DNA from: Candidatus Thorarchaeota archaeon
GTDB lineage: Archaea > Asgardarchaeota > Thorarchaeia > Thorarchaeales > Thorarchaeaceae
NCBI GenBank assembly: GCA_003345595.1
Contig: PRDI01000021.1
Coordinates: 1-16,046 of the forward strand
DNA: 16,046 bases
Direction of reading: 5' to 3'
The translations under genes were made by a program, and so were the position numbers. Position 1 is the first letter of the stretch, and each line of letters opens with the position of its first letter. This document shows positions 92 through 13,863 of the stretch, piece by piece. The notes under the pieces were generated by a model, which did no database searches, had not been told where the DNA came from, and saw only the letters and a list, made by a program, of their open reading frames with translations.

Positions 92-1363
92 CTACTCACC
101 ACCTCCAATGCTTCTTGCCACGAGCTCTGTGAGATCATAGAATTCCAAGGGACTTCCTCTCTCCCTAATCCCGTCACGGAAGTTTGTGGAGCAGAAGGGG
201 CAACATGACACAAGCGCCTGTGCACCTGTCGACTCTGCCTCCTCAAGCCGATTCTGTGCTGTGGACAATGCAAAGTCCGGATAGGCGGCTTTCACACCTG
301 CGCCGGCTCCGCAGCAATATGCGTACTCCCTGATGCGTTCCATTTCAACAAGCTCGATACCTGGTATCTGTCGCAGCACGTTTCTTGGGGCGTCGTATTC
401 TCCACGCGCCCCAGTTCTGATCGGTTTTGGAGGATCATGCATATACACTAGAGCTAAAACCTCCACGAGTTTTCCTTCCCATTTCTCATACGGCTCTGAC
501 ATGCGGCCGAGGTGGCATGGGTCATGATATGTGACCTTCAGAGGAACAGGATTAGCCAGTTTGAGCTTGCCCTTAGCAAGAAGCTTCTCAATCAACTGGG
601 ATATGTGAACGACTTCGAAGTCAAAATCCACAAAGCGTGGATACTCGACCTTCAGCATATTGTAGCAGCCAGAACAACTCGTCACGATCCTCTTGATACC
701 TTGCTGCTTGAACCTCTCAACATTCTGCTTCATTATGTCGATGGCTCGTTTCCTGTCGCCGACGCGATACACCGGACTGCCACAGCAGGATTCATCCGAT
801 CCTAGGATGGCGAACGGCTCGTGAGCTGCATTCAGTATCCTTGCAGTGGCTTCCGCTATTTCCTGTCTCCTATAAGCTGCAGTACAACCCACGAAGTACA
901 AGGTTTGAGAGGCTTCATCCACATCAACGTCCTTTGGCAGCCATGCCTGCCGCTTCTCTGCCTCCTCGCCATACGGGTTGTGAACTCGGTCTACGAGTTC
1001 GATGTACTTCTTATGCTTGGGCATCGGCGCGACACCAGACTCAACAGCCGTCGCCCTGAATTCGCTGATGATCTCATTGGGCTCGATGTCATAGTACATC
1101 TTACAGGTAACCTCACATGCTCCACAGTTCGTACACTTGTATAGGGCATCTAGCATCTCATCGGAGAAGCCGATTCTGCCCTTGTAGAGGGCATTAGCCA
1201 TGATCACTCTGCCCCCACCGGAGTAGGCATGAAGGTTGTACATCTGAATAGACGGGCAGACTTGAGAGTACTTCTTGCTCTTTACAAGAATCCCGTCCAG
1301 AAACTTGCACTTAGAGCAGCGGACACATCGGTCCATCATTTGTTCAAAGTCAGCTAGTGTCAC
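92..1363 (-). CDS. (Fe-S)-binding oxidoreductase, GlcF/HdrD-like (two 4Fe-4S motifs plus two CCG domains), ~423 aa
   Basis: CVRCSKC...CP and CTNCGACEVTC ferredoxin motifs. CCG-domain motifs FVGC, ESCCGS, TSCSGC, YHDPCHLGR, YCCGAG, SCCPFC. Start moved from 1498 to GTG 1363 because of the SD GAGGAGGTGA and a GTGA overlap with the upstream stop. Confidence 0.9.
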   Translation of the reverse strand: MTLADFEQMMDRCVRCSKCKFLDGILVKSKKYSQVCPSIQMYNLHAYSGGGRVIMANALYKGRIGFSDEMLDALYKCTNCGACEVTCKMYYDIEPNEIISEFRATAVESGVAPMPKHKKYIELVDRVHNPYGEEAEKRQAWLPKDVDVDEASQTLYFVGCTAAYRRQEIAEATARILNAAHEPFAILGSDESCCGSPVYRVGDRKRAIDIMKQNVERFKQQGIKRIVTSCSGCYNMLKVEYPRFVDFDFEVVHISQLIEKLLAKGKLKLANPVPLKVTYHDPCHLGRMSEPYEKWEGKLVEVLALVYMHDPPKPIRTGARGEYDAPRNVLRQIPGIELVEMERIREYAYCCGAGAGVKAAYPDFALSTAQNRLEEAESTGAQALVSCCPFCSTNFRDGIRERGSPLEFYDLTELVARSIGGGE

Positions 1364-2850
1364 TCTTTCACCTCCTCGGAGTACAGAGCGCCTGGGTTCA
1401 GCACGGCGTTCGGGTCGAATATCGCCTTCACTTTTCTCATCGCGGTGATGGTTTCGGGCGTGGTCCTTCTGTAAACAGCTTCCGCCACGGGTCCGCAAGG
1501 TCTGCTGAAGTATGCACCCTTGTCCATCAACTGCTCACAGCCCTTTGAGTACAGGCTCCGCGCTACGTCTGCTTTCGCCTTACGCTTGGCATCATAGTAG
1601 ATGTCGAACTCACAGTGGACGTTTGCTCCATGGAGAGTGGGCTGAATGTAGACACCTACATCACTGAGTGGAAAGCCCTCTTCAGTCGCAGTCTCCTCGA
1701 AGACCTCGACCAACCCAGGTGTTTTGTCTAGAGTGGTAATGAAGAACACCTCTTGACATCCTCCTCGGAGTCTGAGCTTCCAGTATGGTTCCTTGCTAGG
1801 AGCTTCCAAGAGGGAAGCAAGCCCGGCCGAGGTCACACCCTTTGTTTCCCTCGCAAGAACTAGACCGGATTCCCTTGCCACGTCGAGCGTGTCTGCTAGT
1901 CTATACTCCAGCTCATCCTCTGCTAGAATGCCATGGCCCGAAACACTCAGTATGAGTGACCATTTAGGCAGGATATCACGAACCGCTTCGATCTTCGGCT
2001 TGTTAGTTTCCAAGGCGCATGCTAGATTCGTGGAATTCAGTATGAAGAGGTCGTCTACGAGTTTGCGTCTGAAGATCGAGTACATGAAGTCTTGAAATCC
2101 GGTCAAAGTGTCATAGCCAGAAACAAGAACGCTCTGAACATCGGGAGCCACTTCACACTTCACAGTGGCCCAGGTGACGATTCCCATAGTCCCCTGCGAG
2201 CCCTGGATTATTCTGAACGGATCGAACTGCGAAGGCCCCATGGGGTTCTTCTGTGCCTGACCCGAAGCCCATTGCTGGTCCAAGTTGCCCGGACCCGCTG
2301 CTGCTCCAGTTCTGAAAAGGTCGCCCGAACCAAATACAACTTCCGTGCATAGAAGAGGGTCAGATGAGTCCCAGTGAAACCTAGGCATTGTGATGGGTTC
2401 CCTGTCTAGGCAGTTGGCTACGGCAGATTTCAGGCTCTTCGGCAGAAGGGGCATCAGAATCCTCAGACCATGCTCCTTCAGCTCATCAATCAGCTGGGAG
2501 TAGGTGACTCCAGGCTCAATCATGGTAACCTTGTTCTTTCTGTCAACTCGAAGAATCCGGTTCATGCGTCTAAGATCGACAGCAATCACGCCGCTGACTT
2601 TGGGTGCCGACTCCCCACGAAGCCTCGGTTTCCCAGAGCTTACGGGTATCAACGGGACTGACTCTCTGTTTGCCAGTTCCACAATCTGCTGAACTTCCTC
2701 TGTTGACCCGGGCATCACGACAGCGCTTGGAAATACAGTGTCGAAGAGCGTCGCCTGTTCGTATTCTCTCAGCCTGGAAGGGTCGTCAGACACATTCTCA
2801 GGTCCGACAATCTTTCTCATTCCATCAAGCAATTTCCTTGGGACTCGCAT
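1360..2850 (-). CDS. FAD-binding oxidoreductase (FAD_binding_4 / VAO-GlcD superfamily), ~496 aa
   Basis: PSAVVMPGSTEEVQQIVELAN, VDLRRMNRIL, IEPGVT, GSQGTMGIVT and C-terminal KVKAIFDPNAVLNPG. Start moved to ATG 2850 (MRVPRK), preceded by AAGAGGT. Confidence 0.9.
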   Translation of the reverse strand: MRVPRKLLDGMRKIVGPENVSDDPSRLREYEQATLFDTVFPSAVVMPGSTEEVQQIVELANRESVPLIPVSSGKPRLRGESAPKVSGVIAVDLRRMNRILRVDRKNKVTMIEPGVTYSQLIDELKEHGLRILMPLLPKSLKSAVANCLDREPITMPRFHWDSSDPLLCTEVVFGSGDLFRTGAAAGPGNLDQQWASGQAQKNPMGPSQFDPFRIIQGSQGTMGIVTWATVKCEVAPDVQSVLVSGYDTLTGFQDFMYSIFRRKLVDDLFILNSTNLACALETNKPKIEAVRDILPKWSLILSVSGHGILAEDELEYRLADTLDVARESGLVLARETKGVTSAGLASLLEAPSKEPYWKLRLRGGCQEVFFITTLDKTPGLVEVFEETATEEGFPLSDVGVYIQPTLHGANVHCEFDIYYDAKRKAKADVARSLYSKGCEQLMDKGAYFSRPCGPVAEAVYRRTTPETITAMRKVKAIFDPNAVLNPGALYSEEVKE

Positions 2851-2900
2851 CGTCACGACCTCTTGACTGATGAGTGCTCGTTGGGCAGGTTTACCGCCAG

Positions 2901-2907
2901 TTATAAT
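2901..2907 (-). promoter_or_regulatory. Possible TATA box for the minus-strand oxidoreductase operon
   Basis: ATTATAA on the minus strand about 50 nt upstream of ATG 2850, with purine-rich sequence upstream of it. Confidence 0.35.
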
Positions 2908-3057
2908 GATTCCTTGTTCGCCATAGGTCCTCGCAAGTTTGTCTGTTAACAGAGGACTGCCACAGAATTGCCGCACGGCCCTTCGGACAACGTACCTCGT
3001 ACGCAAGAAGCATCTCAGCGGCCAACAATCGTGGTCTTCTAGGGACCTAGGCGATTA

Positions 3058-3065
3058 TTTATATA
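3058..3065 (+). promoter_or_regulatory. Archaeal TATA box of the acr3 operon
   Basis: TTTATATA about 80 nt upstream of the acr3 ATG, in the most AT-rich patch of the intergenic region. Confidence 0.65.
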
Positions 3066-3090
3066 TCGAGATTATTCGATGATTCTCGAT
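3065..3090. promoter_or_regulatory. Candidate ArsR operator (overlapping ATCGA-N6-TCGAT boxes)
   Basis: ATCGAgattatTCGAT (3065-3080) is a perfect 5-6-5 inverted repeat, overlapped by tTCGAtgattcTCGAT (3075-3090). The outer arms ATCGAGA/TCTCGAT are also complementary. It lies immediately downstream of the TATA box, and an arsR gene is in the cluster. Confidence 0.65.
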
Positions 3091-3143: not shown

Positions 3144-4280
3144 ATGAACGGTTCCGGTTCTTCGAGCGGCGGTTCATCAGCAGAACCAAGTGCAAAGACA
3201 ACGCTGACTGGCCCGACCAAGGGCCTGAGCACTCTTGATAAATTCCTCCCAGTGTGGATCATCCTAGCCATGGTGTTGGGGTTGCTGCTGGGGTATGTCG
3301 TTCCGGGCATGGCAGAGGCACTCGATTTCTGGAGGATCGACACGGTTTCGCTCCCCATTGCGATAGGACTTCTCTGGATGATGTATCCCGTGCTGGCCAA
3401 AGTGAAGTATGAAGAACTAGGCAAGCTGAAACGCCAAAAGAAGATGTTCGGAGTATCGCTCTTTCTCAACTGGCTGATCGGTCCGTTTCTCATGTTTGCT
3501 CTCGCATGGTTGTTCCTCGCAGACCTGCCTGACTATCGTACCGGGATTATACTTGTGGGACTCGCTCGATGTATAGCCATGGTTCTGATATGGAACATGA
3601 TGGCAGGAGGATGCAGCGAATCTTGTGCAGTGTTAGTGGCACTCAACTCCATCTTTCAGATAGTGATGTACAGTCCAGAGGCATGGTTCTTCGTCACGTA
3701 CCTGCCGTCCGTGGTATCTCCCGGAGCAGGTTCTGTGGTCGAGGTGTCAATACTGGACATTGCAAAGAGCGTTATCATCTTCTTGGGCATTCCATTGGCT
3801 GCAGGTGTGATCACAAGGTTCAGTCTGATTAGACGTCGCTCGAAAGAGTGGTATGACAAGGATTTCGCGCCAAGGCTTGGACCCTATGCCCTCATTGGTC
3901 TCCTATTCACGATCGTTGTGATGTTCTCCTTGAAGGGTGATGTTATCCTCTCGCTGCCCTTTGACGTTGTGAGAATCGCAGTTCCGCTCCTGTGCTACTT
4001 CATTCTCATGTTCTTCGTTTCCTTTGCGATATCCTACGCCTTCAAGTTCGGATATGACAAGAACGTGACAATATCCTTCACAGCAGCGAGCAACAACTTC
4101 GAGCTTGCCATTGCTGTGGCAATCGGAGTGTTTGGAATTCACTCTGGACAGGCACTTGCGGCGGTAGTAGGACCGCTAATAGAAGTGCCAGTGCTTGTTG
4201 GCCTAGTCTATGTCGCGCTGTGGCTAGGTCGGAAGCTCTACGCTCGTAGGCCAGGTGACCCAATCCAATGCGAATCATAG
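3144..4280 (+). CDS. acr3: ACR3-family arsenite efflux transporter
   Basis: About 10 hydrophobic segments. Hallmark motifs MMYPVL, NWLIGP, GLARCIAMVLIWN, SNNFELAIAVAI, VGPLIEVPVL. Confidence 0.96.
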   Translation: MNGSGSSSGGSSAEPSAKTTLTGPTKGLSTLDKFLPVWIILAMVLGLLLGYVVPGMAEALDFWRIDTVSLPIAIGLLWMMYPVLAKVKYEELGKLKRQKKMFGVSLFLNWLIGPFLMFALAWLFLADLPDYRTGIILVGLARCIAMVLIWNMMAGGCSESCAVLVALNSIFQIVMYSPEAWFFVTYLPSVVSPGAGSVVEVSILDIAKSVIIFLGIPLAAGVITRFSLIRRRSKEWYDKDFAPRLGPYALIGLLFTIVVMFSLKGDVILSLPFDVVRIAVPLLCYFILMFFVSFAISYAFKFGYDKNVTISFTAASNNFELAIAVAIGVFGIHSGQALAAVVGPLIEVPVLVGLVYVALWLGRKLYARRPGDPIQCES

Positions 4281-4342
4281 GATCTGATACCGGGCTCAAC
4301 GAGAGAGCCGGCGGTCTGTGCGTAACAGAGGTGCTATAGAAC

Positions 4343-4717
4343 GTGAATCCTGAGAAACCCAGATTCATAATGTGTGTGTGTACAGGCAAGTGTCCAGGTT
4401 TTGCTAAGATGGACATATGGGACTTCATCAACACTGTCCGAATGACTCTCCCTGTGAACCATGCAGTCATTCACCCTCAGCTCTGCGAGCAAGATGGAGA
4501 CCGATACCTCGAGGACACACTCAGGCCAGAACAAAAGGTCATCGTCGCTGGATGCGCCCCAGCGATGCAGGTCAAGCTGTTTCGTGACGCGTTTCAGAGA
4601 AAAGGTATGGACGTGAAGAGGGATCTTGTGCCAATCGACATCCGTGACATGACAACTGAGCAGGCCTTGGAGAAAGTCAAGGCGGAACTCAAGAGGCTTG
4701 GATACGATGTCGAGTGA
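4343..4717 (+). CDS. Small Cys-rich protein resembling the N-terminal Fe-S domain of heterodisulfide reductase subunit A
   Basis: GTG start after GAGGTG. Pattern CVC...C, HPQLC, VIVAGCAP...KLFR, IDIRD parallels the HdrA N-terminal pattern (CxC, LC, VVAACSP..FR, NIRE). No FAD-binding part. Confidence 0.65.
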   Translation: MNPEKPRFIMCVCTGKCPGFAKMDIWDFINTVRMTLPVNHAVIHPQLCEQDGDRYLEDTLRPEQKVIVAGCAPAMQVKLFRDAFQRKGMDVKRDLVPIDIRDMTTEQALEKVKAELKRLGYDVE

Positions 4718-5027
4718 ATCCGGAAACGGAACCACCTTCATGGGCGTCGCACGCGAGAAGATCTCTTGGTGGCCAAGCATAGACACTGAGAGGTGTGATG
4801 GCTGTAGCGGGGAATACGACTGCCTCAAATTCTGCCCGCATCAGGTCTACAGGCCCTTGACCAGCCCCGCGAAGGTAGCTGTCGAAAACCGATACAACTG
4901 CGTTGTGTTCTGTCAAGCCTGCAGGAAGATGTGCCCGAAAGACGCCATCTCATTTCCGCAAAAGGGAGAGATTCTGAAGGTGATTAAAGAGGAACTGAAA
5001 AAGCGAGGTGAGCACAGCGGTCCGTAA
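4707..5027 (+). CDS. 2x[4Fe-4S] ferredoxin-family protein, ~106 aa
   Basis: IDTERCDGCSGEYDCLKFCP and NCVVFCQACRKMCPKDAISF motifs. ATG 4707 follows AAGAGG and overlaps the end of the upstream gene. Confidence 0.88.
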   Translation: MSSESGNGTTFMGVAREKISWWPSIDTERCDGCSGEYDCLKFCPHQVYRPLTSPAKVAVENRYNCVVFCQACRKMCPKDAISFPQKGEILKVIKEELKKRGEHSGP

Positions 5028-5856
5028 GTACATCCTACCATGTGCCGGATACGACCGACCAGGTGGCAACACAAGCAGGAGGGCTGCCGAGAAACTCGCA
5101 TCTCATCACGGTGATGTGACCATCGGCAGCATGGGCGCGTTGTTTACACAGCGGCCTGGAGAGATGCGGGAGCTGAGGTCTTCACGTGTGATCTGCATCG
5201 ATGGATGTGGAACGAAGTGCGCCTCTGTACTCGCCGATGCGAGAGGTGTCAAAGACGCTTTGATTATCTCGATACCTGAGGTGTCCTCCGCCGTCAAAGG
5301 TGATCAGGACAAAGCTCAATCAGTGGTCGATGCCGTAGAAGCGGTCTTCGTCCGTGAGGCCGCTGGCGAAAAGCAAACTCAAGCACCTGAAGAAGAAGCG
5401 GGTCCAGAGCTGCTTGAAGAAACGTTCGACAAGTTCACCCTTCGTGTCAAGGGGGACCTTAGATACTCTGACAATGATTTCTGGGTGAGTGTCGAAAACG
5501 GGAATGTTCGCGTGGGTGTATCTGACTTTCTCCAGCAGATGATGTCCGATGTGTACTACGTCCGACTGGCCGAAGTGGGCACGCACATACAGATGTTTGA
5601 CGAAGCTGGAGCAATGGAGTCTACAAAGACATTGCTGGAGATTATAGTCCCTGTGTCGGGGACTATTGTGGAGCGTAACAGCAAGCTAGAAGACAGCCCC
5701 GAGTTGATCAACGAGGATCCGTACGGAAGAGGATGGTTGTACGTTGTCAATCCTGACGACATCACCGAATTAGAGTTGCTGAAGAATGCATCCGAATACA
5801 TGACACATGCCCTATCAAAAGCAAAGAAGGAGATTGGAAAGAAGGTGAAGGACTAG
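5008..5856 (+). CDS. Fusion of a DGC (putative metal-binding) domain and a glycine-cleavage H-like lipoyl-carrier domain
   Basis: N-half: PCAG...IDGCGTKCA (DGC pattern). Acidic linker EKQTQAPEEEAGPE. C-half: WV...VRVGVSDF.Q, MESTKT (lipoyl Lys207, codon 5626-5628), PVSGTIVERN, LEDSPELINEDPYGRGWL. Continuous reading frame. Confidence 0.88.
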   Translation: MSTAVRKYILPCAGYDRPGGNTSRRAAEKLASHHGDVTIGSMGALFTQRPGEMRELRSSRVICIDGCGTKCASVLADARGVKDALIISIPEVSSAVKGDQDKAQSVVDAVEAVFVREAAGEKQTQAPEEEAGPELLEETFDKFTLRVKGDLRYSDNDFWVSVENGNVRVGVSDFLQQMMSDVYYVRLAEVGTHIQMFDEAGAMESTKTLLEIIVPVSGTIVERNSKLEDSPELINEDPYGRGWLYVVNPDDITELELLKNASEYMTHALSKAKKEIGKKVKD

Positions 5857-5859
5857 ACG

Positions 5860-6246
5860 ATGAAGAAAGTCGTTGTTCCTTGCAGTGGGATTGGAAAAGC
5901 GTTTGGAGCAGTATCAAGGGAAACCACACATCTATTGACTCAGGGAATGCATTCTACCGACTACCGAACGGTATGCCTTCCTCTCCTCATGACCGACGAT
6001 ACGGAAGCCAGGCAAGTCATCGAGGAGTCGGAAGTCTACGTAGTCGATGGCTGCCCGATGAAATGCGCGTCTGTCGTGGTCAAACATGCTGGGGGCAAGC
6101 CGGTGATGGAGATCATCGTACCGAAAGTCTTGGCTGTCAATAAGGACCACAGACCTGCCACTGTGCTTGACATCGGTGAGGGAGGACGCCTCCTCTGTGA
6201 GGACATCGTTCGCATAATCATTGAACGTGGAGGCAAGGATGAATGA
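5860..6246 (+). CDS. DGC-domain (putative zinc/metal-binding) protein
   Basis: VVPCSGIG...TVCLP...VVDGCPMKCA, the four-Cys DGC pattern. Confidence 0.85.
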   Translation: MKKVVVPCSGIGKAFGAVSRETTHLLTQGMHSTDYRTVCLPLLMTDDTEARQVIEESEVYVVDGCPMKCASVVVKHAGGKPVMEIIVPKVLAVNKDHRPATVLDIGEGGRLLCEDIVRIIIERGGKDE

Positions 6247-6647
6247 GCTTTACGCCTAAGGTCGGCATTGTATCGTGCAGCGGCGAGGACTGCTTTGGCG
6301 GTGGCGTTTCCCGCATGGCCACTCTAGAAGTGCTTCACCGACTAAGGCCGACTGACACCGTGACAATATGCCTTCCCCTGTTTCTCGCAGGAAGTGGAGG
6401 GGAGCGTGAGTTCGCCAAGAGCTTTCCGACTATCACAGTTGATGGTTGTGCAAAGATGTGCGCCGCGAAAGGAACCGCCAAATACAGCAGCGAACCGGCT
6501 GTCAGAATCAATGTCAGCGACTACATGGACGACCCCTGCTCCAAGGTTGACGGAGTGGCAAAAGCAGGTGAAGTCTCGGTTGTTGTGCGGCGAGTTGCAA
6601 GCGATATCGCTTCGCATGTCGACCGACTGAGATCCCAGTGGAGATGA
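6243..6647 (+). CDS. DGC-domain (putative zinc/metal-binding) protein
   Basis: IVSCSGEDC...TICLP...TVDGCAKMCA. ATGA overlap with the upstream gene. Confidence 0.85.
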   Translation: MSFTPKVGIVSCSGEDCFGGGVSRMATLEVLHRLRPTDTVTICLPLFLAGSGGEREFAKSFPTITVDGCAKMCAAKGTAKYSSEPAVRINVSDYMDDPCSKVDGVAKAGEVSVVVRRVASDIASHVDRLRSQWR

Positions 6648-6922
6648 AAAACATGCCAAGAATAGTGAAGGTCAGAGTGTTTCTGCCGGTTGGAGTCTGC
6701 GGCTGCAGTCAAACCGACTTCATTGCCCGCACATACCAGGCAGTGCGGAAGCATCCAGACATTGTCGACTATGGGGAAGACTCGGCCGGAAGTGAGGCTG
6801 CCAAGAGAGCAGGTGTTACCTACAGAGGGATACTCATAGGTCGCCGCTTGCTTCAAGGCAATCCCACATCAGACCAGATTGAAGAGGCGATTCTTGCCGA
6901 GGCCAACAGGACAGAGGACTAG
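6644..6922 (+). CDS. Small thioredoxin-fold / ArsD-like protein with a CGC motif
   Basis: ATGA overlap at 6644 (alternative start ATG 6653). VRVFLPVGVCGC and ILIG...GNPTSDQIEEAI loosely resemble ArsD (GVCG; GxYPT) and small thioredoxin-like proteins of ars operons. Confidence 0.55.
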   Translation: MKNMPRIVKVRVFLPVGVCGCSQTDFIARTYQAVRKHPDIVDYGEDSAGSEAAKRAGVTYRGILIGRRLLQGNPTSDQIEEAILAEANRTED

Positions 6923-6934
6923 GAGAGAGACCTA

Positions 6935-7231
6935 ATGAGCGCTGATAGAGAGATGGAGTGGAGGGTCCAGTTTCACAGAGCTCTGAGCAATCCTGTTCGA
7001 CTCAGGATTGTAGAGTTCTTGGCTGATGGAGAGCAATGTCAGTGCAACATCTTTCCGAAGATAGGTCTCTCCCAGTCTACTGTTTCGGCCTATCTCACCC
7101 AACTTGTGAGGGCAGGAGTCCTGGGAGTGAGGCGTGACGGGACAAGAAAGCTATACAGTCTCAGCGACCGAAAAGTCAAGAGGATGATTGATGATGCCCG
7201 AGCAATTGCCCATTACAGGATGACATCTTAA
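6935..7231 (+). CDS. arsR: ArsR/SmtB-family transcriptional repressor
   Basis: FHRALSNPVRLRIVEFL, GEQCQCNI (equivalent of the As(III)-binding ELCVCDL box), LSQSTVSAYL...LVRAG, RRDG...YSL winged HTH. Confidence 0.92.
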   Translation: MSADREMEWRVQFHRALSNPVRLRIVEFLADGEQCQCNIFPKIGLSQSTVSAYLTQLVRAGVLGVRRDGTRKLYSLSDRKVKRMIDDARAIAHYRMTS

Positions 7232-7328
7232 GAAGGGAGCCGAAGACCTCTTGGGCTTGAACTGACAAGTGACTATGCGGCTTAGCTTTCCAAAGAAACT
7301 TTCGGCGGAAATTCGGTGGCGTGCTAGG

Positions 7329-8084
7329 ATGAATGGACAGGAATGGCGTATTCTCATCTCTTGTACAGACGACGCCGCATTGAACTTGGCTATCGATGAG
7401 TCGCTGATCAGGAATTTGGTGAAGCGTGGAGCCCCGAGCACCATACGTGTCTGGCAGAACCGACCCTCCATCATCATAGGCCGTTCGCAGGATGCACGTG
7501 CAGAAGTGAACATTGATGTGTGCCGAAGACTGGGCATACCAGTTATTCGACGTTTCTCAGGAGGGGGCACCGTATACACTGACAAAGGCTGCTACAACTA
7601 TACTGTTGTCACTCCAACTCAGGAGATTCGCGGCCCACGAACACTTCAAGCCATGCACGGATTCATCTGCTCTGCAATAATGAATGTAATCTCTCGCTTC
7701 GGCTCCACCCCGTTGCTCATTCCCCCTTCAAGCATTTTCGTGCTAGGACGGAAGGTTTCCGGTTCCGCTCAATACCTCCTGCACGATTGTCTACTCCAGC
7801 ACGGCACTCTGCTGGTTGACTCGAATCTTGGGGTATTGCGGTCAGTTCTTTCACGAAACGGTCGAATGGCTGCTCTTTTGCACTCTGTTCCGAGCACGCC
7901 AGCGCCTGTCGCAAATCTTGCTGAGCTGATAGGGCGGCATCCGAGTCGAGGAGAAGTCTATGACGCCATGATTCATGAACTGACGTCGTTGTTTGGGCAA
8001 CCTTGCAGGCGAGGCTCACTATCGAGCGCAGAAGATGAGATGGCTCGCCGCTTGCTCAGGAGCGACCACTCTGCATCAAGCTGA
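7329..8084 (+). CDS. lplA: Lipoate-protein ligase family protein (catalytic domain only), ~251 aa
   Basis: NLAIDESL, WQNRPSIIIGRSQ, RRFSGGGTVYTD, GRKVSGSAQ (catalytic Lys), QHGTLL. Start probably ATG 7329 (MNGQEWRILIS); the ORF extends upstream to 7269. Confidence 0.88.
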   Translation: MNGQEWRILISCTDDAALNLAIDESLIRNLVKRGAPSTIRVWQNRPSIIIGRSQDARAEVNIDVCRRLGIPVIRRFSGGGTVYTDKGCYNYTVVTPTQEIRGPRTLQAMHGFICSAIMNVISRFGSTPLLIPPSSIFVLGRKVSGSAQYLLHDCLLQHGTLLVDSNLGVLRSVLSRNGRMAALLHSVPSTPAPVANLAELIGRHPSRGEVYDAMIHELTSLFGQPCRRGSLSSAEDEMARRLLRSDHSASS

Positions 8085-8253
8085 CAGCAAGTCTATCGAT
8101 GGCTACGCTCTAAGCCCGACTCCGTCTGAGGAACGCTAAATACTGTCCCTGAGCCTAATAGAAACCGATTGGCGAAACGCGCGAGGTCGTTCTTCCGCCG
8201 CTAGTACTGTGACCCCGGCGAATAGCGTGTCAGATGTATATGGAGGACAGTGC

Positions 8254-11200
8254 ATGAACAAATCCTCAATCCATTGCAGTCATGTGCCGAACGTCGGTCT
8301 GGGATACAAACCCGTTGCAGCTCTCCTCAGGGTTGCTTTGCTCGCAATCGCGGCACTACTGATATTGATGCCGGTTTCGGGGCCGGTCACGTCCTCACCA
8401 GACATCGTGAGTGAGCCCGTTCTTGTGAACGAAACATTCTCCGAGGCATCGAACTTCATCAGGATGAGCCTTCCTTATCCTGTCAAATCAATCGCTGTGG
8501 GTACAACATCACAGGGGTCTGGTATCGCCTACGTGCACGGGGATCTTCTCAGGTTCAAGAACCCTGTTAGCTTGGCTGATGATTCGGTGTTCATTGGCAC
8601 GGAAACTGTGCTACATCGAACTCTAACCAGCGCGGACATGGATGGTGATGGTCACTCTGAGTTTCTAATAATGAAGTTCGGCCTGCTGCCTGCTTCTTGC
8701 CTAGTGGTCGACTTCGATAACCATTCTTCTAAGGAATTCAGTTGCCCGGTGGCTGACCCGATTGAGATTCTCACAGGGGATTTCGATGGGAATGGCGTGA
8801 CTGACTTCGCAGTCTACAATGTGGGTAGTCTTGTTATCATGAACATGACTGATGGCAGTCTAATGCTGAGCTACAACTTCCTTGGCGACGTGGTCCGGGC
8901 ATGTGTGGGCAATTTCACATTAAACCCGGGTGACGAGATAGCAGTCCTGTACAACGCCGTATTCGGTCTAGCTGTCATGACTTTCAGTGGCCTTGGACCC
9001 ATCGGATCCGACTCTATGGGCCTAGTTGTTGGTTGTGACATTGCCACATTCCATTATGGTGCCGGGTTCGATGATATCGCAGTCACCTTTGTCGATGCTA
9101 CCGGCACCGGCGATCCGAGTTACCTGAAAACATACTACGGGGATCTGACAGAGATATACACAGTAGGCAATCCTAGTTCAACGGGGGCTGCCTTTGTCAA
9201 GACGGGTTACTTCAATGGTGACTCACAGGAGGACTTGGCCGTCTTGTCCAGGACAAGGGCGCTTGCATGGTTCGCAGACGGAAATGATGGGTCAACAGTG
9301 AGAACCTCTGTTGAGGAGTACTATGGAGCTAACTGGAGAGCATTCGCCACTGCGATACTCGACTCTGACAACTACACTGATGTCGCAGTTGAAGGGCCTC
9401 GCAGTCAGCTCTCACTGATAAGAGGAGTCAATGGTGAAACAGGATATGAGGAACCAAGGTCACCCGGGCCGTTCGCGCAGGTCTTGACGTATGACATTGA
9501 CAGCGATGGCAGAAGCGACATCGTGGCTCTTACCGACCAGATCACTATTCTGCTAAGCGATATTCAGGCCCCATCAGTCAGTCTCGAACCTCTCTATCCT
9601 GCCCATCCTACATTCTATGATAGCTACGTCAAAATTGAGTTAACGGCTACAGACGAATTGGAGGTCAGAGGTGCAATTATCTACATCAAACCCGCAGGCG
9701 CCATTCTGACCATGACTTATCAGGCGCACGAGATGGTCAAAGCACCAAACGGAAGGTACCTATTCATCATGGCAGGTCTTCAACCAAGCGATTTCGATTA
9801 CTACATAGAGGTGACAGATCCTTACCTGAATACCTACTCCTACGGTAACGAATCAAACCCTAACACCCTTACTGTGGAGGGCCATTTCGCTTGGGGGCAC
9901 TTCTTCAATACCACAATAGAGCAGGGCCAGACGCATGCGCTAGCTTTGGGAAACAATTCGGCAGGAGAACAGCTACTACTAGCGATGACGCTGGAGCCTA
10001 CACTGGGCACAGCTACTCTGCGAGTCTTCAGTACACAGGGTACAGAAGTCACACAGGCAGAGATTCTCAGCTCGTCACGGGACTTCAAGTTCGAAGTCTA
10101 CTCGGGTATGCTTGATGCAGACAACATTCTGGATCCGGTGGTAATAGGATACAATGCAACGCACACTAGGCTCTGGGTTCTCCATGGAAACAATATGACC
10201 TTCTGGAGGAGCGACATGCAGTCGGTTCCGTCTACTACGATGAACAACGGCTTGCTGGTATTCGACGACGACGAGGACCAGACGGACGAGATTCATTACG
10301 TGGGGACCAATGTAACAGCGTATTTCCTCATGAGGGCTGATGACGGCTTCTCCTCATGGGTCAATGCTACTCTTCCTGGCAATTCCTCCATCGTTGGAGC
10401 AGCTTGTGCCTCAATCTACGCTCTTCGCCCCCAGATAGGAGTACTCAGGGGTGACAAGAAGCTGGACATCTACCAAGCGTACAATGTGACTTGGTTGAGA
10501 ACCTTGGATTACTCTTCACCGGGGTCTACTCCGAATGATCTTCCCATGATGATTACGACATACCACAATTCAAGCCGTCCAACAGACCAATTCCTGACAG
10601 TCTATGGGGGATGGGTGCTTGACACACCTGTGACATACATGTGCCTCGTCGGCAGTGAAACATCGACTGTGGGGGACGATTCTTCCCACACAATCTTGGG
10701 ACGCCATTTGAGTATGGTTGCACTCTACGACATGGATACTGATTATACAGATGAGCTACTGTTCTTCGACAACGTCGGCAATGTTTCTTTGTTTGACTTC
10801 TCCTATGCCGAGATCAGGCGGTGGACTGTCTTCGTGAGCGAAGCCGGGCCTCTGAGTAGTGCCTTACTGGATTACGATGGCGATGGTTCGGACGAGTTCC
10901 TGATATCGACATCGGACGACAAGCTCACTGCTATTGGACTTGGCGGTGTTCAGGACTATCAGGCCGCCGCAGGCATGTTGTTCAACATGATCAACATCGG
11001 CAATGTCGACCCAGGTTTGGGTGAAGATCTCGCAGCATTTCCTATTCTGAGGGCTAGAAGTACTCTGGGAGCAGTAAGGAACATAGAACTCTTCTACGTC
11101 CTAGAGGTCGGCTTTGGGCTTGAGTCCAGCGTCATCCTCCAAGGCACGAACCTTTGGGCGAACACCACTGTCCTGAACGTTTTCCACGAGCCAGTATCCG

Positions 11201-13863
11201 ACGCCTTTGTGTCATTGACCGCACAGTACAGGTATGGTGCTGGTATTTCGGAACAGAGCTTGGGGTCCATCTACGACAACTCCTCGCATCGATACTCTTC
11301 AATCATCTCGCCCAACTGGCCGATTGGCATGGTCAACATGTCCCTCGCAATCAGCCATGAATACTATGACTCATACTCTGCCAGCTTTGTCAATGCCTTG
11401 AAAGTGGTGAGCCCCTTGACCGTTTCCCTATTCGCCGACTCACAGGTTCAACAAGGTGAGGATCTGCCGGTGAACGCCTCGGTTACAGATTCTCTCGGAG
11501 GAAGAGTCACAGATGCGGAAGTCAACGTGACCCTGGATGGCATTATGTATCCGGCGTACTACAACGAAGAGTTCTACCATGTCATACTGACAAACATCAC
11601 TCTGGCGCCGGGAAACCACAATCTTGCTGCAAGTGCAGACCATCCGTACTCTGTTGGAATTGCAAACAGGGCTCGAACCTTCTCTGTGTTCGCGTCAGCA
11701 CTCATCATCGTTAGGAATTCACCATCATTAGTAGAGCAACACTCATCCTTCGCCATTGAGTTGAGCATCGCAGACCTCTACGGACACCCCATAGTTGGCG
11801 CAAGTGTAATGATTGATTTTGGCATCCTCAAGATCCCGATGTCGCAAACAGGTCCTGGCTTGTACTTGCTGAATCATACAGCCGATATGCCTGTTGGCAA
11901 CTACACGTGTGAGGTCCAGGTCAATCACCCGTTTATTGAAGCAGGCAGCTTCGATTCTTTCAGCATCGGCGTGATTGGCAATCTCAACCCGGTTGTGCGA
12001 TATGAGGGCTCTGTCGAGCAGGGTTCGTTCTTCAACGTTTCAGTGTTTGTGTACGATGGCTACGGGACTATACCAGCCGGGGCTAACGTCACTATCGAAG
12101 CAGGCGGCTTCATCTATCGCGCCAATTCCTCAGGCAGCGCGGAGTTCAAAGCTACCGTCCTTGCCGACTTCCCAATTGGCCCCAACAGCTTCACTGTCTT
12201 CGTTCAGGCCACATTCGGTCATATGACTTCAGTGTCCTGCGGGATAGAAACTAGAAGTCGTGCCGTGGCAACCGTTCTCACTCCCGTTCTTGGCGGGTCA
12301 TACGTTCAAGGGGACGATGACATAGCATTTGCATTGGATGTGGCCGATAGTCTTGGGAACGCTGTAACACAAGCCTACGTCAGGATTCTCATCAGCGAAA
12401 CCACCTACATGCTGACTGACCATCTCAATGGTACGTACACGGCTATCGTCACAACGTCCGGTTGGGCACCGGGGAACTACAGTTACGTAGTCTTTCTGAC
12501 ACGCGACTTTCTCGACTATACTGATCCCATAGGCGGAAATGTTACAATCCAAGGCAAAATCACGCTTGACATCACTCTTTCAACTTCATCTCCTGAGCAG
12601 AACACGACAGTCACAGTTACAGTGCGTGTTGCTGATTGGTATGCACATTCGATCTCAGGTGCATACGTAACCTTGGAGTTCGGGGGCACAACAAGGGTTG
12701 TTCCTGAAACGTCCACACCTGGCCTCTATGAAATGGAAGTTGACGTCGGATTCATTCCTCATGGTCAACATAACCTTACGCTCTGCGCAGAGCACCTGCT
12801 CTGCAGGCGGGCGAACAGCACACTGTTGTTGCAGGTTACTGTAAAGGCGCCCCAGATTGCCATGAACACACAGACCTTCATGTTTGGGTCCGGCTTGTCA
12901 TTCTTGGTCAGCTTCGTTGGTCTACTGATCTACTTCAGAATCTCGTCGTCACTAGCAGTTGTCGATGTCAGCAGCAAAGCCATGGTGAAAAGCATCCGTA
13001 GGATGGATGTGCTTTACGGGGCCATTGTTGGTCTCGGAGGGCTAACGCTCGTGCATTCCTACGTGTCAGCACAGGCAGGAGATTTCGGGCTGGCGCTGGG
13101 TGAGAGCGTGCTACTGCTCGGTATCTCTGTACTTCTGTACGGGATCTGGCTATACAGAGATGCGAACTACGCGATCATCCAAGCCAAGAAACTCAGCAAG
13201 AAGAGGATGATAGCTGGCCTGTGGCACCTGATATTCGTCCCGCTCGTCATCGCGCAGATATTCGTGTGGGGCGGACGCATCGAATGGTTCCAGTACTGGG
13301 TGCTCGAGTCGACTTTCAACCTGGGATCTGTCGCCATACCTATGATAATGCTGACAATCTTTGCGACCTATGTTTCATCCATAGGCATAGTAGTCGTGAA
13401 CCTGTACAGGGAGATAAGAAACAGCCTAACACGACTTGAACGGATGGCAGGCGCCGGGACTCCCCCCGCAGTCGTCGCGGAGGAACGTCTGCAGCTCGTA
13501 GGGAGGTTGGGGTCTTCAATCCGCATCAAGTTCTTCATGTTCCTCGTGATTCTTGCAGGGACAACAGTCATGACCATGGAATTCCTGAGAAGCTACTCTC
13601 TCGGCGTCATCGTCCTCATGCCAGTGGTGTTCTTGATCTTGATTCCATACGTGTCGTCAAAGATGCTGAAAGGAGCTTCGAGAGTTTCGGGCAAGATGCG
13701 AGAGAGAAGGCCGACTGCTGGCCCTTCACTAACAGAAGTGGCCGACAGTGTCACCGAAGTGTCCGGACGAGTCGAGAAGGAATCGTATGAACCCCCGGAC
13801 AAGGCAGTCTCCGGAACAGACATGGACTGGAAACCGGGCGAAGAATCGGACGAAGAGAAGTAG
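8254..13863 (+). CDS. Large surface glycoprotein: signal/anchor, FG-GAP/VCBS-like propeller regions, Ig-like repeats, C-terminal 7-TM domain, ~1869 aa
   Basis: ATG 8254 follows GGAGG. Hydrophobic N-terminal stretch VALLAIAALLILM. Many DxDxDGxxD/E motifs and six ~95-aa beta-rich repeats. Seven hydrophobic segments at ~12877-13655, then a charged tail. Confidence 0.85.
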   Translation: MNKSSIHCSHVPNVGLGYKPVAALLRVALLAIAALLILMPVSGPVTSSPDIVSEPVLVNETFSEASNFIRMSLPYPVKSIAVGTTSQGSGIAYVHGDLLRFKNPVSLADDSVFIGTETVLHRTLTSADMDGDGHSEFLIMKFGLLPASCLVVDFDNHSSKEFSCPVADPIEILTGDFDGNGVTDFAVYNVGSLVIMNMTDGSLMLSYNFLGDVVRACVGNFTLNPGDEIAVLYNAVFGLAVMTFSGLGPIGSDSMGLVVGCDIATFHYGAGFDDIAVTFVDATGTGDPSYLKTYYGDLTEIYTVGNPSSTGAAFVKTGYFNGDSQEDLAVLSRTRALAWFADGNDGSTVRTSVEEYYGANWRAFATAILDSDNYTDVAVEGPRSQLSLIRGVNGETGYEEPRSPGPFAQVLTYDIDSDGRSDIVALTDQITILLSDIQAPSVSLEPLYPAHPTFYDSYVKIELTATDELEVRGAIIYIKPAGAILTMTYQAHEMVKAPNGRYLFIMAGLQPSDFDYYIEVTDPYLNTYSYGNESNPNTLTVEGHFAWGHFFNTTIEQGQTHALALGNNSAGEQLLLAMTLEPTLGTATLRVFSTQGTEVTQAEILSSSRDFKFEVYSGMLDADNILDPVVIGYNATHTRLWVLHGNNMTFWRSDMQSVPSTTMNNGLLVFDDDEDQTDEIHYVGTNVTAYFLMRADDGFSSWVNATLPGNSSIVGAACASIYALRPQIGVLRGDKKLDIYQAYNVTWLRTLDYSSPGSTPNDLPMMITTYHNSSRPTDQFLTVYGGWVLDTPVTYMCLVGSETSTVGDDSSHTILGRHLSMVALYDMDTDYTDELLFFDNVGNVSLFDFSYAEIRRWTVFVSEAGPLSSALLDYDGDGSDEFLISTSDDKLTAIGLGGVQDYQAAAGMLFNMINIGNVDPGLGEDLAAFPILRARSTLGAVRNIELFYVLEVGFGLESSVILQGTNLWANTTVLNVFHEPVSDAFVSLTAQYRYGAGISEQSLGSIYDNSSHRYSSIISPNWPIGMVNMSLAISHEYYDSYSASFVNALKVVSPLTVSLFADSQVQQGEDLPVNASVTDSLGGRVTDAEVNVTLDGIMYPAYYNEEFYHVILTNITLAPGNHNLAASADHPYSVGIANRARTFSVFASALIIVRNSPSLVEQHSSFAIELSIADLYGHPIVGASVMIDFGILKIPMSQTGPGLYLLNHTADMPVGNYTCEVQVNHPFIEAGSFDSFSIGVIGNLNPVVRYEGSVEQGSFFNVSVFVYDGYGTIPAGANVTIEAGGFIYRANSSGSAEFKATVLADFPIGPNSFTVFVQATFGHMTSVSCGIETRSRAVATVLTPVLGGSYVQGDDDIAFALDVADSLGNAVTQAYVRILISETTYMLTDHLNGTYTAIVTTSGWAPGNYSYVVFLTRDFLDYTDPIGGNVTIQGKITLDITLSTSSPEQNTTVTVTVRVADWYAHSISGAYVTLEFGGTTRVVPETSTPGLYEMEVDVGFIPHGQHNLTLCAEHLLCRRANSTLLLQVTVKAPQIAMNTQTFMFGSGLSFLVSFVGLLIYFRISSSLAVVDVSSKAMVKSIRRMDVLYGAIVGLGGLTLVHSYVSAQAGDFGLALGESVLLLGISVLLYGIWLYRDANYAIIQAKKLSKKRMIAGLWHLIFVPLVIAQIFVWGGRIEWFQYWVLESTFNLGSVAIPMIMLTIFATYVSSIGIVVVNLYREIRNSLTRLERMAGAGTPPAVVAEERLQLVGRLGSSIRIKFFMFLVILAGTTVMTMEFLRSYSLGVIVLMPVVFLILIPYVSSKMLKGASRVSGKMRERRPTAGPSLTEVADSVTEVSGRVEKESYEPPDKAVSGTDMDWKPGEESDEEK
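8620..11040 (+). repeat. FG-GAP/VCBS-like Ca-binding repeats (protein level), in two groups
   Basis: Group 1: DMDGDGHSE, DFDGNGVTD, NFTLNPGDE, YFNGDSQED, LDSDNYTD, DIDSDGRSD. Group 2: LDADNILD, DDDEDQTDE, DMDTDYTDE, DYDGDGSDE, NVDPGLGED. An Ig-like segment (~9559-9880) separates the groups. Confidence 0.75.
11100..12850 (+). repeat. Six tandem Ig-like (Big-1-like) repeats (protein level)
   Basis: Motif xQG...V(T/A)DxxGxxVxxAxV recurs at 11170, 11482, 11767, 12049, 12340 and 12628 (spacing 282-312 nt). Confidence 0.75.

Follow-up and report, generated by a model that had tools for sequence, protein, structure and literature searches.

Protein-bound lipoate has roles in the 2-oxoacid and glycine cleavage complexes, in sHdr sulfur oxidation and in peroxide reduction, and lipoyl enzymes are a textbook target of arsenite. 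In P. mercurii ND132, an arsR-arsP-arsE(Thioredoxin_3)-DGC operon is up-regulated by arsenic, with no function assigned to the DGC protein (bioRxiv 10.1101/2022.10.17.512643). A 2026 survey of lipoylation substrates is silent on arsenic and on DGC (bioRxiv 10.64898/2026.10.01.755906). The present analysis concerns a 16,046-bp window of a Thorarchaeota (Asgard archaea) contig (i.e., the whole stretch of DNA that was analysed, with a GC content of ~0.52 throughout), in which an arsenic resistance (ars) operon contains an undescribed accessory system made of a lipoyl carrier, a lipoate ligase, DGC proteins and Fe-S proteins, with a real chance of new lipoate-dependent chemistry. A literature search retrieved no account of arsenic resistance that involves a lipoyl carrier, a lipoate ligase or this Fe-S/DGC cassette, in agreement with a preliminary description of this DNA, made from the sequence, whose authors knew of no ars pathway using a lipoyl carrier.

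Nine genes of the + strand were confirmed within positions 3144-8084 from the open reading frames (ORFs) of the window and from family scans, which bears out, positions and families included, the co-directional series of overlapping or abutting genes first described. From acr3 to lplA, the successive junctions are a 62-nt gap, two 20-nt overlaps, a 3-nt gap, overlaps of 4 and 10 nts and gaps of 12 and 37 nts. With overlaps of 4-20 nts and gaps of 3-62 nts, the arrangement therefore fits a single operon. It is a genuine ars operon because it encodes both a pump (Acr3) and a regulator (ArsR). The pump reaches the equivalog level of TIGR00832 (435.1 bits against a cut-off of 282.8, model positions 1-327 covered) and its gene is the sole acr3 match in the genome (2.73 Mb, 83% complete). 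The regulator has the winged helix-turn-helix (HTH) of the ArsR/SmtB family (PF01022, E=1.2e-10; NF033788, 68 bits against a cut-off of 55) and reads GEQCQCNIF...SQSTVS, with a CxC just ahead of the HTH, in helix alpha3. The spacing between the CxC and the SQ equals that of C32/C34 in the ELCVCDL...SQ motif of the R773 ArsR. The acr3 gene appears to share one transcript with a conserved, previously undescribed cassette and the lipoate ligase gene that belongs to it.

The core of this cassette consists of five genes, encoding a 124-aa HdrA-N-like protein, a ferredoxin, a DGC-GcvH fusion and two further DGC proteins, while a reduced form contains a stand-alone GcvH and two DGC genes without the Fe-S pair. 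Full or reduced, the cassette was found in six phyla: Thorarchaeota, Bacillota, Acidobacteriota, Vulcanimicrobiota, Thermodesulfobacteriota and Chloroflexota, the bacterial contexts being drawn from GTDB representative genomes. The neighbourhood search proposed in the preliminary description, for acr3/arsR with DGC, GcvH-like and LplA genes across prokaryotes, was thus positive over six phyla, and because the linkage to ars genes recurs in other genomes, it is not peculiar to this one. An acr3 gene was present within the fetched locus for 9 of the 15 cassette loci and for none of the 69 canonical gcvH loci of the same scan (Fisher p=1.4e-8). Furthermore, the cassette usually stands beside an ArsR with arsenite-type cysteines: the CxC (CQC, CVC or CAC) is retained in eight of nine cassette-adjacent regulators. 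Two regulators also have a Cys cluster at the C-terminus (PCV.NFF.C), and one of the two, in the Acidobacteriota locus L010, has a single Cys at the CxC position.

In the Thorarchaeota loci, the five-gene core is invariant, usually followed by the gene of the thioredoxin (Trx)-like protein and often by that of ArsR. The acr3 gene is adjacent to the cassette in the window, in L004, in L006 and in the P0004 locus, and lies 2.6-7 kb away in L001 and L119. Among bacteria, the five-gene core was found in Eubacterium callanderi, a Clostridium, a Vulcanimicrobiota, an unclassified bacterium and an Acidobacteriota, the latter with the order acr3, low-molecular-weight protein tyrosine phosphatase (LMW-PTP) arsC, oxidoreductase, arsR, core, lplA and DsbD-like (L010). 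The reduced form directly follows acr3 in Syntrophales, together with radical-SAM and lplA genes, whereas in Syntrophobacteraceae it is accompanied by an E3-like flavoprotein, a radical-SAM gene and lplA, with an adjoining Usp gene. In Anaerolineales (L023), the order is arsR, reduced form, OsmC and acr3. The cultivated acetogen E. callanderi contains two five-gene cassettes, L008 (G003:C5) and L115 (G003:C16), each with a divergent ArsR of the CVC type, and one of the two copies follows genes for a DUF2703 protein and an XRE regulator. Both of these regulators keep the CxC, although no acr3 is found nearby.

A 17-bp dyad operator, TATCGAGATTATTCGAT, overlaps the TATA-like TTTATATA (~3057-3064) and is located 64-80 bp upstream of the acr3 ATG. 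This 17-mer occurs once in the 2.73-Mb genome, with up to 2 mismatches permitted. In other Thorarchaeota, the motif is found 37-45 bp 5′ of the first gene of the cassette (L002/L003, L005, L006, L118 and L119), where it forms part of a perfect 9-6-9 palindrome in L002. It also precedes acr3 in L001 and L119, a DUF5714/LplA-like/LplA operon in L001 and the gene of the Trx-like CxC protein in L119, while a control of ~1.3 Mb of unrelated loci yielded 2 loose matches only. The operator is hence common to the cassette, acr3, the Trx-like gene and the lplA operon in at least five other Thorarchaeota lineages, even when they are kilobases apart, and is a putative binding site of the operon's own ArsR. 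Because the same operator precedes all four, we infer that pump, cassette, ligase and Trx-like protein form one putative regulon in Thorarchaeota. The operator-bearing operon of L001 (L001:3189-5967, from the complete Thorarchaeota genome CP070761) encodes, in order, a DUF5714 protein (240 aa), a weakly LplA-like protein of 374 aa and LplA (275 aa); the DUF5714 protein may be a further lipoylation accessory. In L119 (L119:13540-16170), an acr3-like SBF gene, a transporter gene of the SLAC1/TehA type (tellurite-resistance family) and the CxC thioredoxin-like gene follow one another in this order, with operator copies before the first and the last.

The H domain of the DGC-GcvH fusion is well recognized (PF01597, E=2e-34; TIGR00527, 117.1 bits against a cut-off of 115.85). 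Lys207 lies in an ESTK motif (E-S-x-K on the H-protein fold) that is invariant across 12 homologues, and is predicted to be lipoylated. Fused and free H domains from the 15 cassette loci all group in a single clade (SH-aLRT 95), with canonical GcvH, including the genome's own, outside. The genome contains three GcvH-like genes; the canonical one adjoins gcvT on contig C75, whereas the cassette protein, fused to DGC, lacks the orthology and the gcvT/gcvP linkage expected of a true GcvH. The DGC-GcvH fusion is represented by about 100 clusters, nearly all of them thorarchaeal, with homologues named Thorarchaeota or Sifarchaeia (both Asgard archaea). The LplA of the operon shares 30% identity with the housekeeping LplA, whose gene neighbours a radical-SAM gene on contig C2, and 40% with the LplA linked to the cassette in L001; presumably, it is reserved for the fusion protein.

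Residues 5-92 of the 124-aa protein align to the N-terminal Fe-S domain of HdrA with matching Cys positions (NCBIfam E=0.0057; profile against PDB 7bkb_A, E=0.008). Its invariant cysteines are C11, C13, C17, C48 and C71, and the motif CVCTGKC contains one Cys more than the HdrA pattern. Archaeal and bacterial copies are 57-77% identical. The family is rare, with 131 representatives at E<=1e-3 in 1.84 billion proteins, and these are nearly always small and stand-alone. The ferredoxin (Fer4, 25.8 bits; cut-off, 21.1) has an atypical Cys spacing, and its gene invariably follows that of the 124-aa protein in the cassette loci examined. In the cassette loci compared, the fused DGC domain is present wherever the Fe-S pair is and absent wherever the pair is absent, which suggests an electron-input submodule that would be replaced by an E3-like enzyme in the reduced form.

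All three DGC domains match PF08859 (fused DGC, DGC2 and DGC3: 42.9, 56.9 and 56.1 bits; cut-off, 27), and DGC domains are confined to the window in this genome. In DGC2 and DGC3, the invariant residues are C12, C43, D67-G68-C69 and C73, plus G14, G20 and R24, while the fused DGC retains exactly three invariant cysteines (C12, C67 and C71), the second Cys of the DGC2/DGC3 set being missing. The AlphaFold2 (AF2) model of DGC3 (pLDDT 91.7) is a flavodoxin-like alpha/beta domain, in which the DGC cysteines would be located at or just past the C-terminal ends of strands 1-3. ArsC structures are the top Foldseek rows for this domain, but the matches are weak (E ~0.01, TM ~0.4, rmsd 9 A) and the loop is CX11R, not the CX5R of the LMW-PTP P-loop, so that DGC was rejected as an LMW-PTP arsenate reductase. 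VIA-align found no specific structural relative of DGC3, the best being the uncharacterised Wolinella protein 3pu6 (Z 9.0), followed by generic flavodoxin-like folds. In a joint fold prediction of DGC2, DGC3 and the DGC domain of the fusion as a possible DsrEFH-like heteromer, a control outscored the real set. A search of longer proteins for fused DGC forms gave 3 matches. In the Acidobacteriota and Anaerolineales loci (L010:11236-11973 and L023:2441-3154), DGC3 carries a C-terminal extension of ~100 aa opening with CxCS; a relationship of this extension to the 94-aa protein described below was rejected (hhalign probability 2%).

DGC genes were found in 45 of 201 Desulfobacterota genomes. Within 1.5 kb of 30 canonical Desulfobacterota DGC genes, the most frequent neighbours encode ArsP_1 (13), DsbD-type proteins (11), Thioredoxin_3 (10), SBF/Acr3 (4), ArsR (3) and LMW-PTP (2). 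In these loci (L085-L114), a single canonical DGC is mostly associated with an ArsP_1 permease, Thioredoxin_3 and a DsbD-like protein, a triad that is widespread and apparently functionally undescribed. Because of these neighbourhoods and of the ND132 operon, DGC proteins seem generally to partner small dithiol proteins in ArsR-type loci; here, the partner would be the lipoyl arm.

The 94-aa protein had no Pfam match at E up to 10 and no PDB profile match. Its AF2 model (pLDDT 86.3) has the order beta-alpha-beta-alpha-beta-beta-alpha, with the redox Cys at the N-terminus of helix 1, and all of the Foldseek matches listed are thioredoxins (probability 1.00, TM 0.6-0.7; best 2ipa_A, E=4.5e-4). 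It reads GVCGCS, with CGC in place of the thioredoxin CxxC. In other Thorarchaeota, its homologues are encoded after the cassette or after acr3. Of the initial label "Trx/ArsD-like", the thioredoxin fold is thus upheld. As to ArsD, it is not among the Foldseek matches listed, and only two cysteines are conserved, compared with Cys12-Cys13-Cys18 in ArsD.

The coordinates of the operon and its operator are given in Table 1.

Table 1. Operator and genes of the Thorarchaeota ars operon (positions in the 16,046-bp window)
Feature	Position	Strand	Family or basis
17-bp dyad operator TATCGAGATTATTCGAT	3064..3080		motif conserved before Thorarchaeota cassette/acr3 units
acr3, arsenite efflux permease	3144..4280	+	TIGR00832
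124-aa Fe-S protein, HdrA-N-like	4343..4717	+	weak HdrA N-terminal matches, without Pfam family
Dicluster [4Fe-4S] ferredoxin	4698..5027	+	Fer4
DGC-GcvH fusion, predicted lipoyl Lys207	5008..5856	+	PF08859 + PF01597
DGC protein 2	5860..6246	+	PF08859
DGC protein 3	6243..6647	+	PF08859
94-aa thioredoxin-fold CxC protein	6638..6922	+	AF2 model, without sequence family
ArsR/SmtB repressor, CQC motif	6935..7231	+	HTH_5 (PF01022), NF033788
Second, divergent lplA, catalytic domain only	7269..8084	+	family scans

Upstream, at 92-3006 on the - strand, a GlcD-like FAD oxidase and a CCG/Fer4_8 (HdrD/GlcF-like) protein are encoded divergently from the acr3 promoter region. The same pair adjoins acr3 in the P0004 locus and lies ~3 kb upstream of acr3 in L004, and a similar pair is located ~1.3 kb from the third GcvH-like gene of the genome (G000:C39:41930-45992). 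The pair might be a 2-hydroxyacid-driven source of reductant for lipoyl proteins, or reflect plain synteny. Directly downstream of the operon, a gene for a 1884-aa FG-GAP-repeat protein (8209-13863) is syntenic in the P0004 locus, where the protein has 2058 aa; the downstream part of the window also holds an ORF without family assignment.

We propose, as a tentative reading with a little less than an even chance of being correct, that this is an ArsR-controlled arsenic-response operon in which a ferredoxin-driven lipoyl dithiol relay acts on the DGC cysteine proteins for arsenic detoxification. As(III) would free ArsR from the operator in the promoter and thereby derepress the operon, and LplA would attach the lipoyl group to Lys207 of the DGC-GcvH fusion. 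Electrons would then pass, in what is presumably this direction, from reduced ferredoxin to the dicluster ferredoxin and the 124-aa HdrA-N-like protein, leading to reduction of the lipoyl disulfide. In this step, the extra, cluster-adjacent Cys of the 124-aa protein could allow an action similar to that of ferredoxin:thioredoxin reductase (FTR), the three-Cys DGC domain of the fusion providing the docking site; where bacteria have the reduced form, the E3-like flavoprotein would substitute for the Fe-S input. The dihydrolipoyl arm would serve as dithiol donor to DGC2, DGC3 and the CxC thioredoxin-fold protein, which would liberate As(III), or generate it, from an arsenical that is oxidised or bound to thiols (the candidate substrate), for export by Acr3.

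Such a relay fits the tight packing of nine genes behind a single promoter with a genome-unique operator. It is further supported by the linkage to acr3, by the arsenite-type cysteines of the regulators even where acr3 is missing, by the separate clade of the H proteins and by the accompanying genes for lipoylation or reduction, namely the second lplA, the radical-SAM and lplA genes and, in one locus, the E3-like gene. A broader claim, in which protein-bound lipoate is the cofactor of a widespread anaerobic arsenic-transforming system whose lipoyl arm is charged by a ferredoxin-driven Fe-S disulfide reductase and assisted by DGC proteins, is rather doubtful; methyl-, thio- or other pentavalent arsenicals that have no known reductase in prokaryotes would be the candidate substrates.

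Several observations weigh against a relay devoted to arsenic. Some cassettes have no nearby acr3: none was found within 8-10 kb in the Thorarchaeota loci L002/L003 and L118, nor within 10 kb of either E. callanderi copy. The similarity of the 124-aa protein to the HdrA N-terminal domain is weak (E ~0.006-0.008). The CxC sites of ArsR/SmtB proteins can also sense Cd, Pb, Zn or Sb, and DGC proteins may hold structural zinc only, as their Pfam and NCBI names imply. In addition, a standard ArsC is present in the genome and another is encoded beside the Acidobacteriota cassette. The former, an LMW-PTP ArsC at the very start of contig C13 (C13:122-547, ICSGNSARSQMAE), has the CX5R loop CSGNSARS and the cysteines Cys8, Cys80 and Cys87, of which Cys80 and Cys87 occupy the places of B. 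subtilis Cys82 and Cys89, and is of the thioredoxin-coupled type. Plain arsenate reduction is therefore an unlikely role for the cassette, and the ArsC-independent arsenate reductase considered in the preliminary description is weakened by these two genes. Its observation that arsC, arsA, arsM, gcvP/T and E3 are lacking stands for the window, where family scans found none of them, but does not extend to the genome, which has ArsC (C13), gcvT and gcvH (C75) and an E3-like gene (C58).

The alternative that survives best, although unlikely, is an arsenite buffer or chaperone, in which the dihydrolipoyl arm and the DGC sites would bind As(III), shield essential lipoyl enzymes and pass As(III) to Acr3 by thiol exchange, as ArsD passes it to ArsA, with the Fe-S proteins keeping the arm reduced. 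It is well established that the vicinal dithiols of dihydrolipoamide bind As(III) avidly, and the exactly three invariant cysteines of the fused DGC recall S3, the usual As(III) geometry in the chemistry of ArsR, ArsD and ArsA. The CxC thioredoxin-fold protein that accompanies acr3 or the cassette is also consistent with a chaperone, and the genome encodes canonical lipoyl proteins in need of protection. However, a dedicated electron input (the Fe-S pair or, in L012, E3) is more suggestive of turnover than of stoichiometric binding, the cassette is also found without a nearby pump, and a sponge would demand very high expression.

A general thiol or peroxide defence under the control of an arsenic sensor, with a lipoyl-dependent disulfide or hydroperoxide reductase repairing the damage caused by arsenic, is clearly improbable. 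The OsmC gene within the Anaerolineales reduced cassette and the Usp gene adjoining that of Syntrophobacteraceae point in this direction, and GcvH-like proteins have, according to the 2026 survey, been proposed or shown to be electron donors of OsmC/Ohr (bioRxiv 10.64898/2026.10.01.755906, citing Nyvltova 2016 and Cussiol 2010). In the scanned loci, however, neither the window nor the five-gene form contains a peroxidase-type gene, and the ever-present partners are DGC proteins, whose other contexts are ArsP/Trx/DsbD loci and not peroxidase loci.

By analogy with sHdr-LbpA, the lipoyl arm could instead carry sulfane sulfur or process As-S species into As(III) and sulfide, which has only a small chance of being correct. 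Thioarsenates are common in sulfidic sediments, and the carriers of the cassette are, judged by organism names, anaerobes of sediment or sulfidic habitats. An HdrA-like fragment with a lipoyl carrier and a dedicated ligase echoes sHdr, a CCG/HdrD-like gene lies divergently upstream of the operon, and ND132 makes thioarsenicals (bioRxiv 10.1101/2022.10.17.512643). On the other hand, HdrB/C, DsrE, TusA, rhodanese and sulfur-transport genes were not found in the cassette loci examined, and the regulators have the metalloid-type CxC, not the Cys pair of the BigR/SqrR type. Finally, that an unrelated redox module merely adjoins ars genes is hardly credible, since, even if some copies have no acr3 within 10 kb, the linkage recurs in six phyla with the p-value given above, the operator is common with acr3 and a metalloid-type ArsR stands beside nearly every copy.

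If the proposed lipoyl dithiol relay is correct, it would provide a first function for the DGC family and for the rare, free-standing HdrA-N-like Fe-S protein, as well as an additional role for protein-bound lipoate beside those listed at the outset. The presence, from Asgard archaea to acetogenic bacteria, of a lipoyl carrier with its own ligase in arsenic regulons would mean that a target of arsenite had been turned into a tool, and might account for arsenic transformations that lack a known enzyme in anoxic, sulfidic sediments. The question is testable, as the two cassette copies of E. callanderi, each by a CVC-type ArsR, are carried by a cultivated organism.

Among described systems, the proposed reduction of the lipoyl disulfide recalls FTR, in which a [4Fe-4S] cluster beside a reactive Cys lets a one-electron donor reduce a disulfide. 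The likeness is one of analogy only: the FTR catalytic subunit is similarly small (~115-125 aa) and has CxC motifs, but contains six catalytic cysteines compared with the five invariant ones of the 124-aa protein. The lipoyl-dependent peroxide reductases (i.e., Lpd-DlaT-AhpD-AhpC of M. tuberculosis, H-protein/L-protein-OsmC of Trichomonas and Ohr) also use a lipoyl protein as dithiol donor to a small Cys protein, and an OsmC is present in L023. In contrast, the input of the operon is apparently ferredoxin/Fe-S rather than NADH/E3, the acceptors would be DGC proteins and there is no peroxidase-type gene; the operon therefore falls outside the lipoyl-dependent peroxidase systems as these are described.

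Nor is it part of the glycine cleavage or of the sHdr-LbpA system. It resembles the latter, with its sLpl(AB) and LipS1/LipS2, in having a GcvH-like carrier outside glycine cleavage, a dedicated LplA-type ligase and one Hdr-related Fe-S element, and in the radical-SAM genes that stand beside the ligase in bacterial variants of the cassette. However, of shdrC1B1AHC2B2 only the 124-aa HdrA-N fragment is represented; the operon has no HdrB/C CCG subunits, full HdrA flavoprotein or DsrE3/TusA, and the CCG protein of the window (92-1498) belongs to a divergent unit that is not conserved with the cassette. No DsrE3/TusA relay genes were found among the scanned neighbours of the window and of the cassette loci. 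The cassette H domains form a separate clade among the sampled sequences, in a tree that left out LbpA, and both regulator and pump point to arsenic.

With canonical ArsR-regulated ars operons (arsR-acr3/arsB, with or without arsC, arsD/arsA and thioredoxin-type accessory genes), this locus has in common that its Acr3 is of equivalog level, that the CxC of its ArsR stands at the type-1 As(III) site, that a dyad operator marks its only promoter and that a small thioredoxin-fold protein is among the accessories. Here, by contrast, the operon has no arsC, and the Fe-S pair, the carrier fusion and the two DGC proteins (five of the nine genes), together with the ligase, have no counterpart in described ars operons. 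The arsR-arsP-arsE-DGC operon of ND132 likewise has a PF08859 DGC protein and a small thioredoxin-fold partner under ArsR, a triad found in 10-13 of the 30 Desulfobacterota DGC loci. It differs by its single canonical DGC (95-124 bits) and its ArsP permease, without lipoyl carrier, ligase or Fe-S pair, whereas the Thorarchaeota operon brings together three divergent DGC domains, a lipoyl domain and Acr3.

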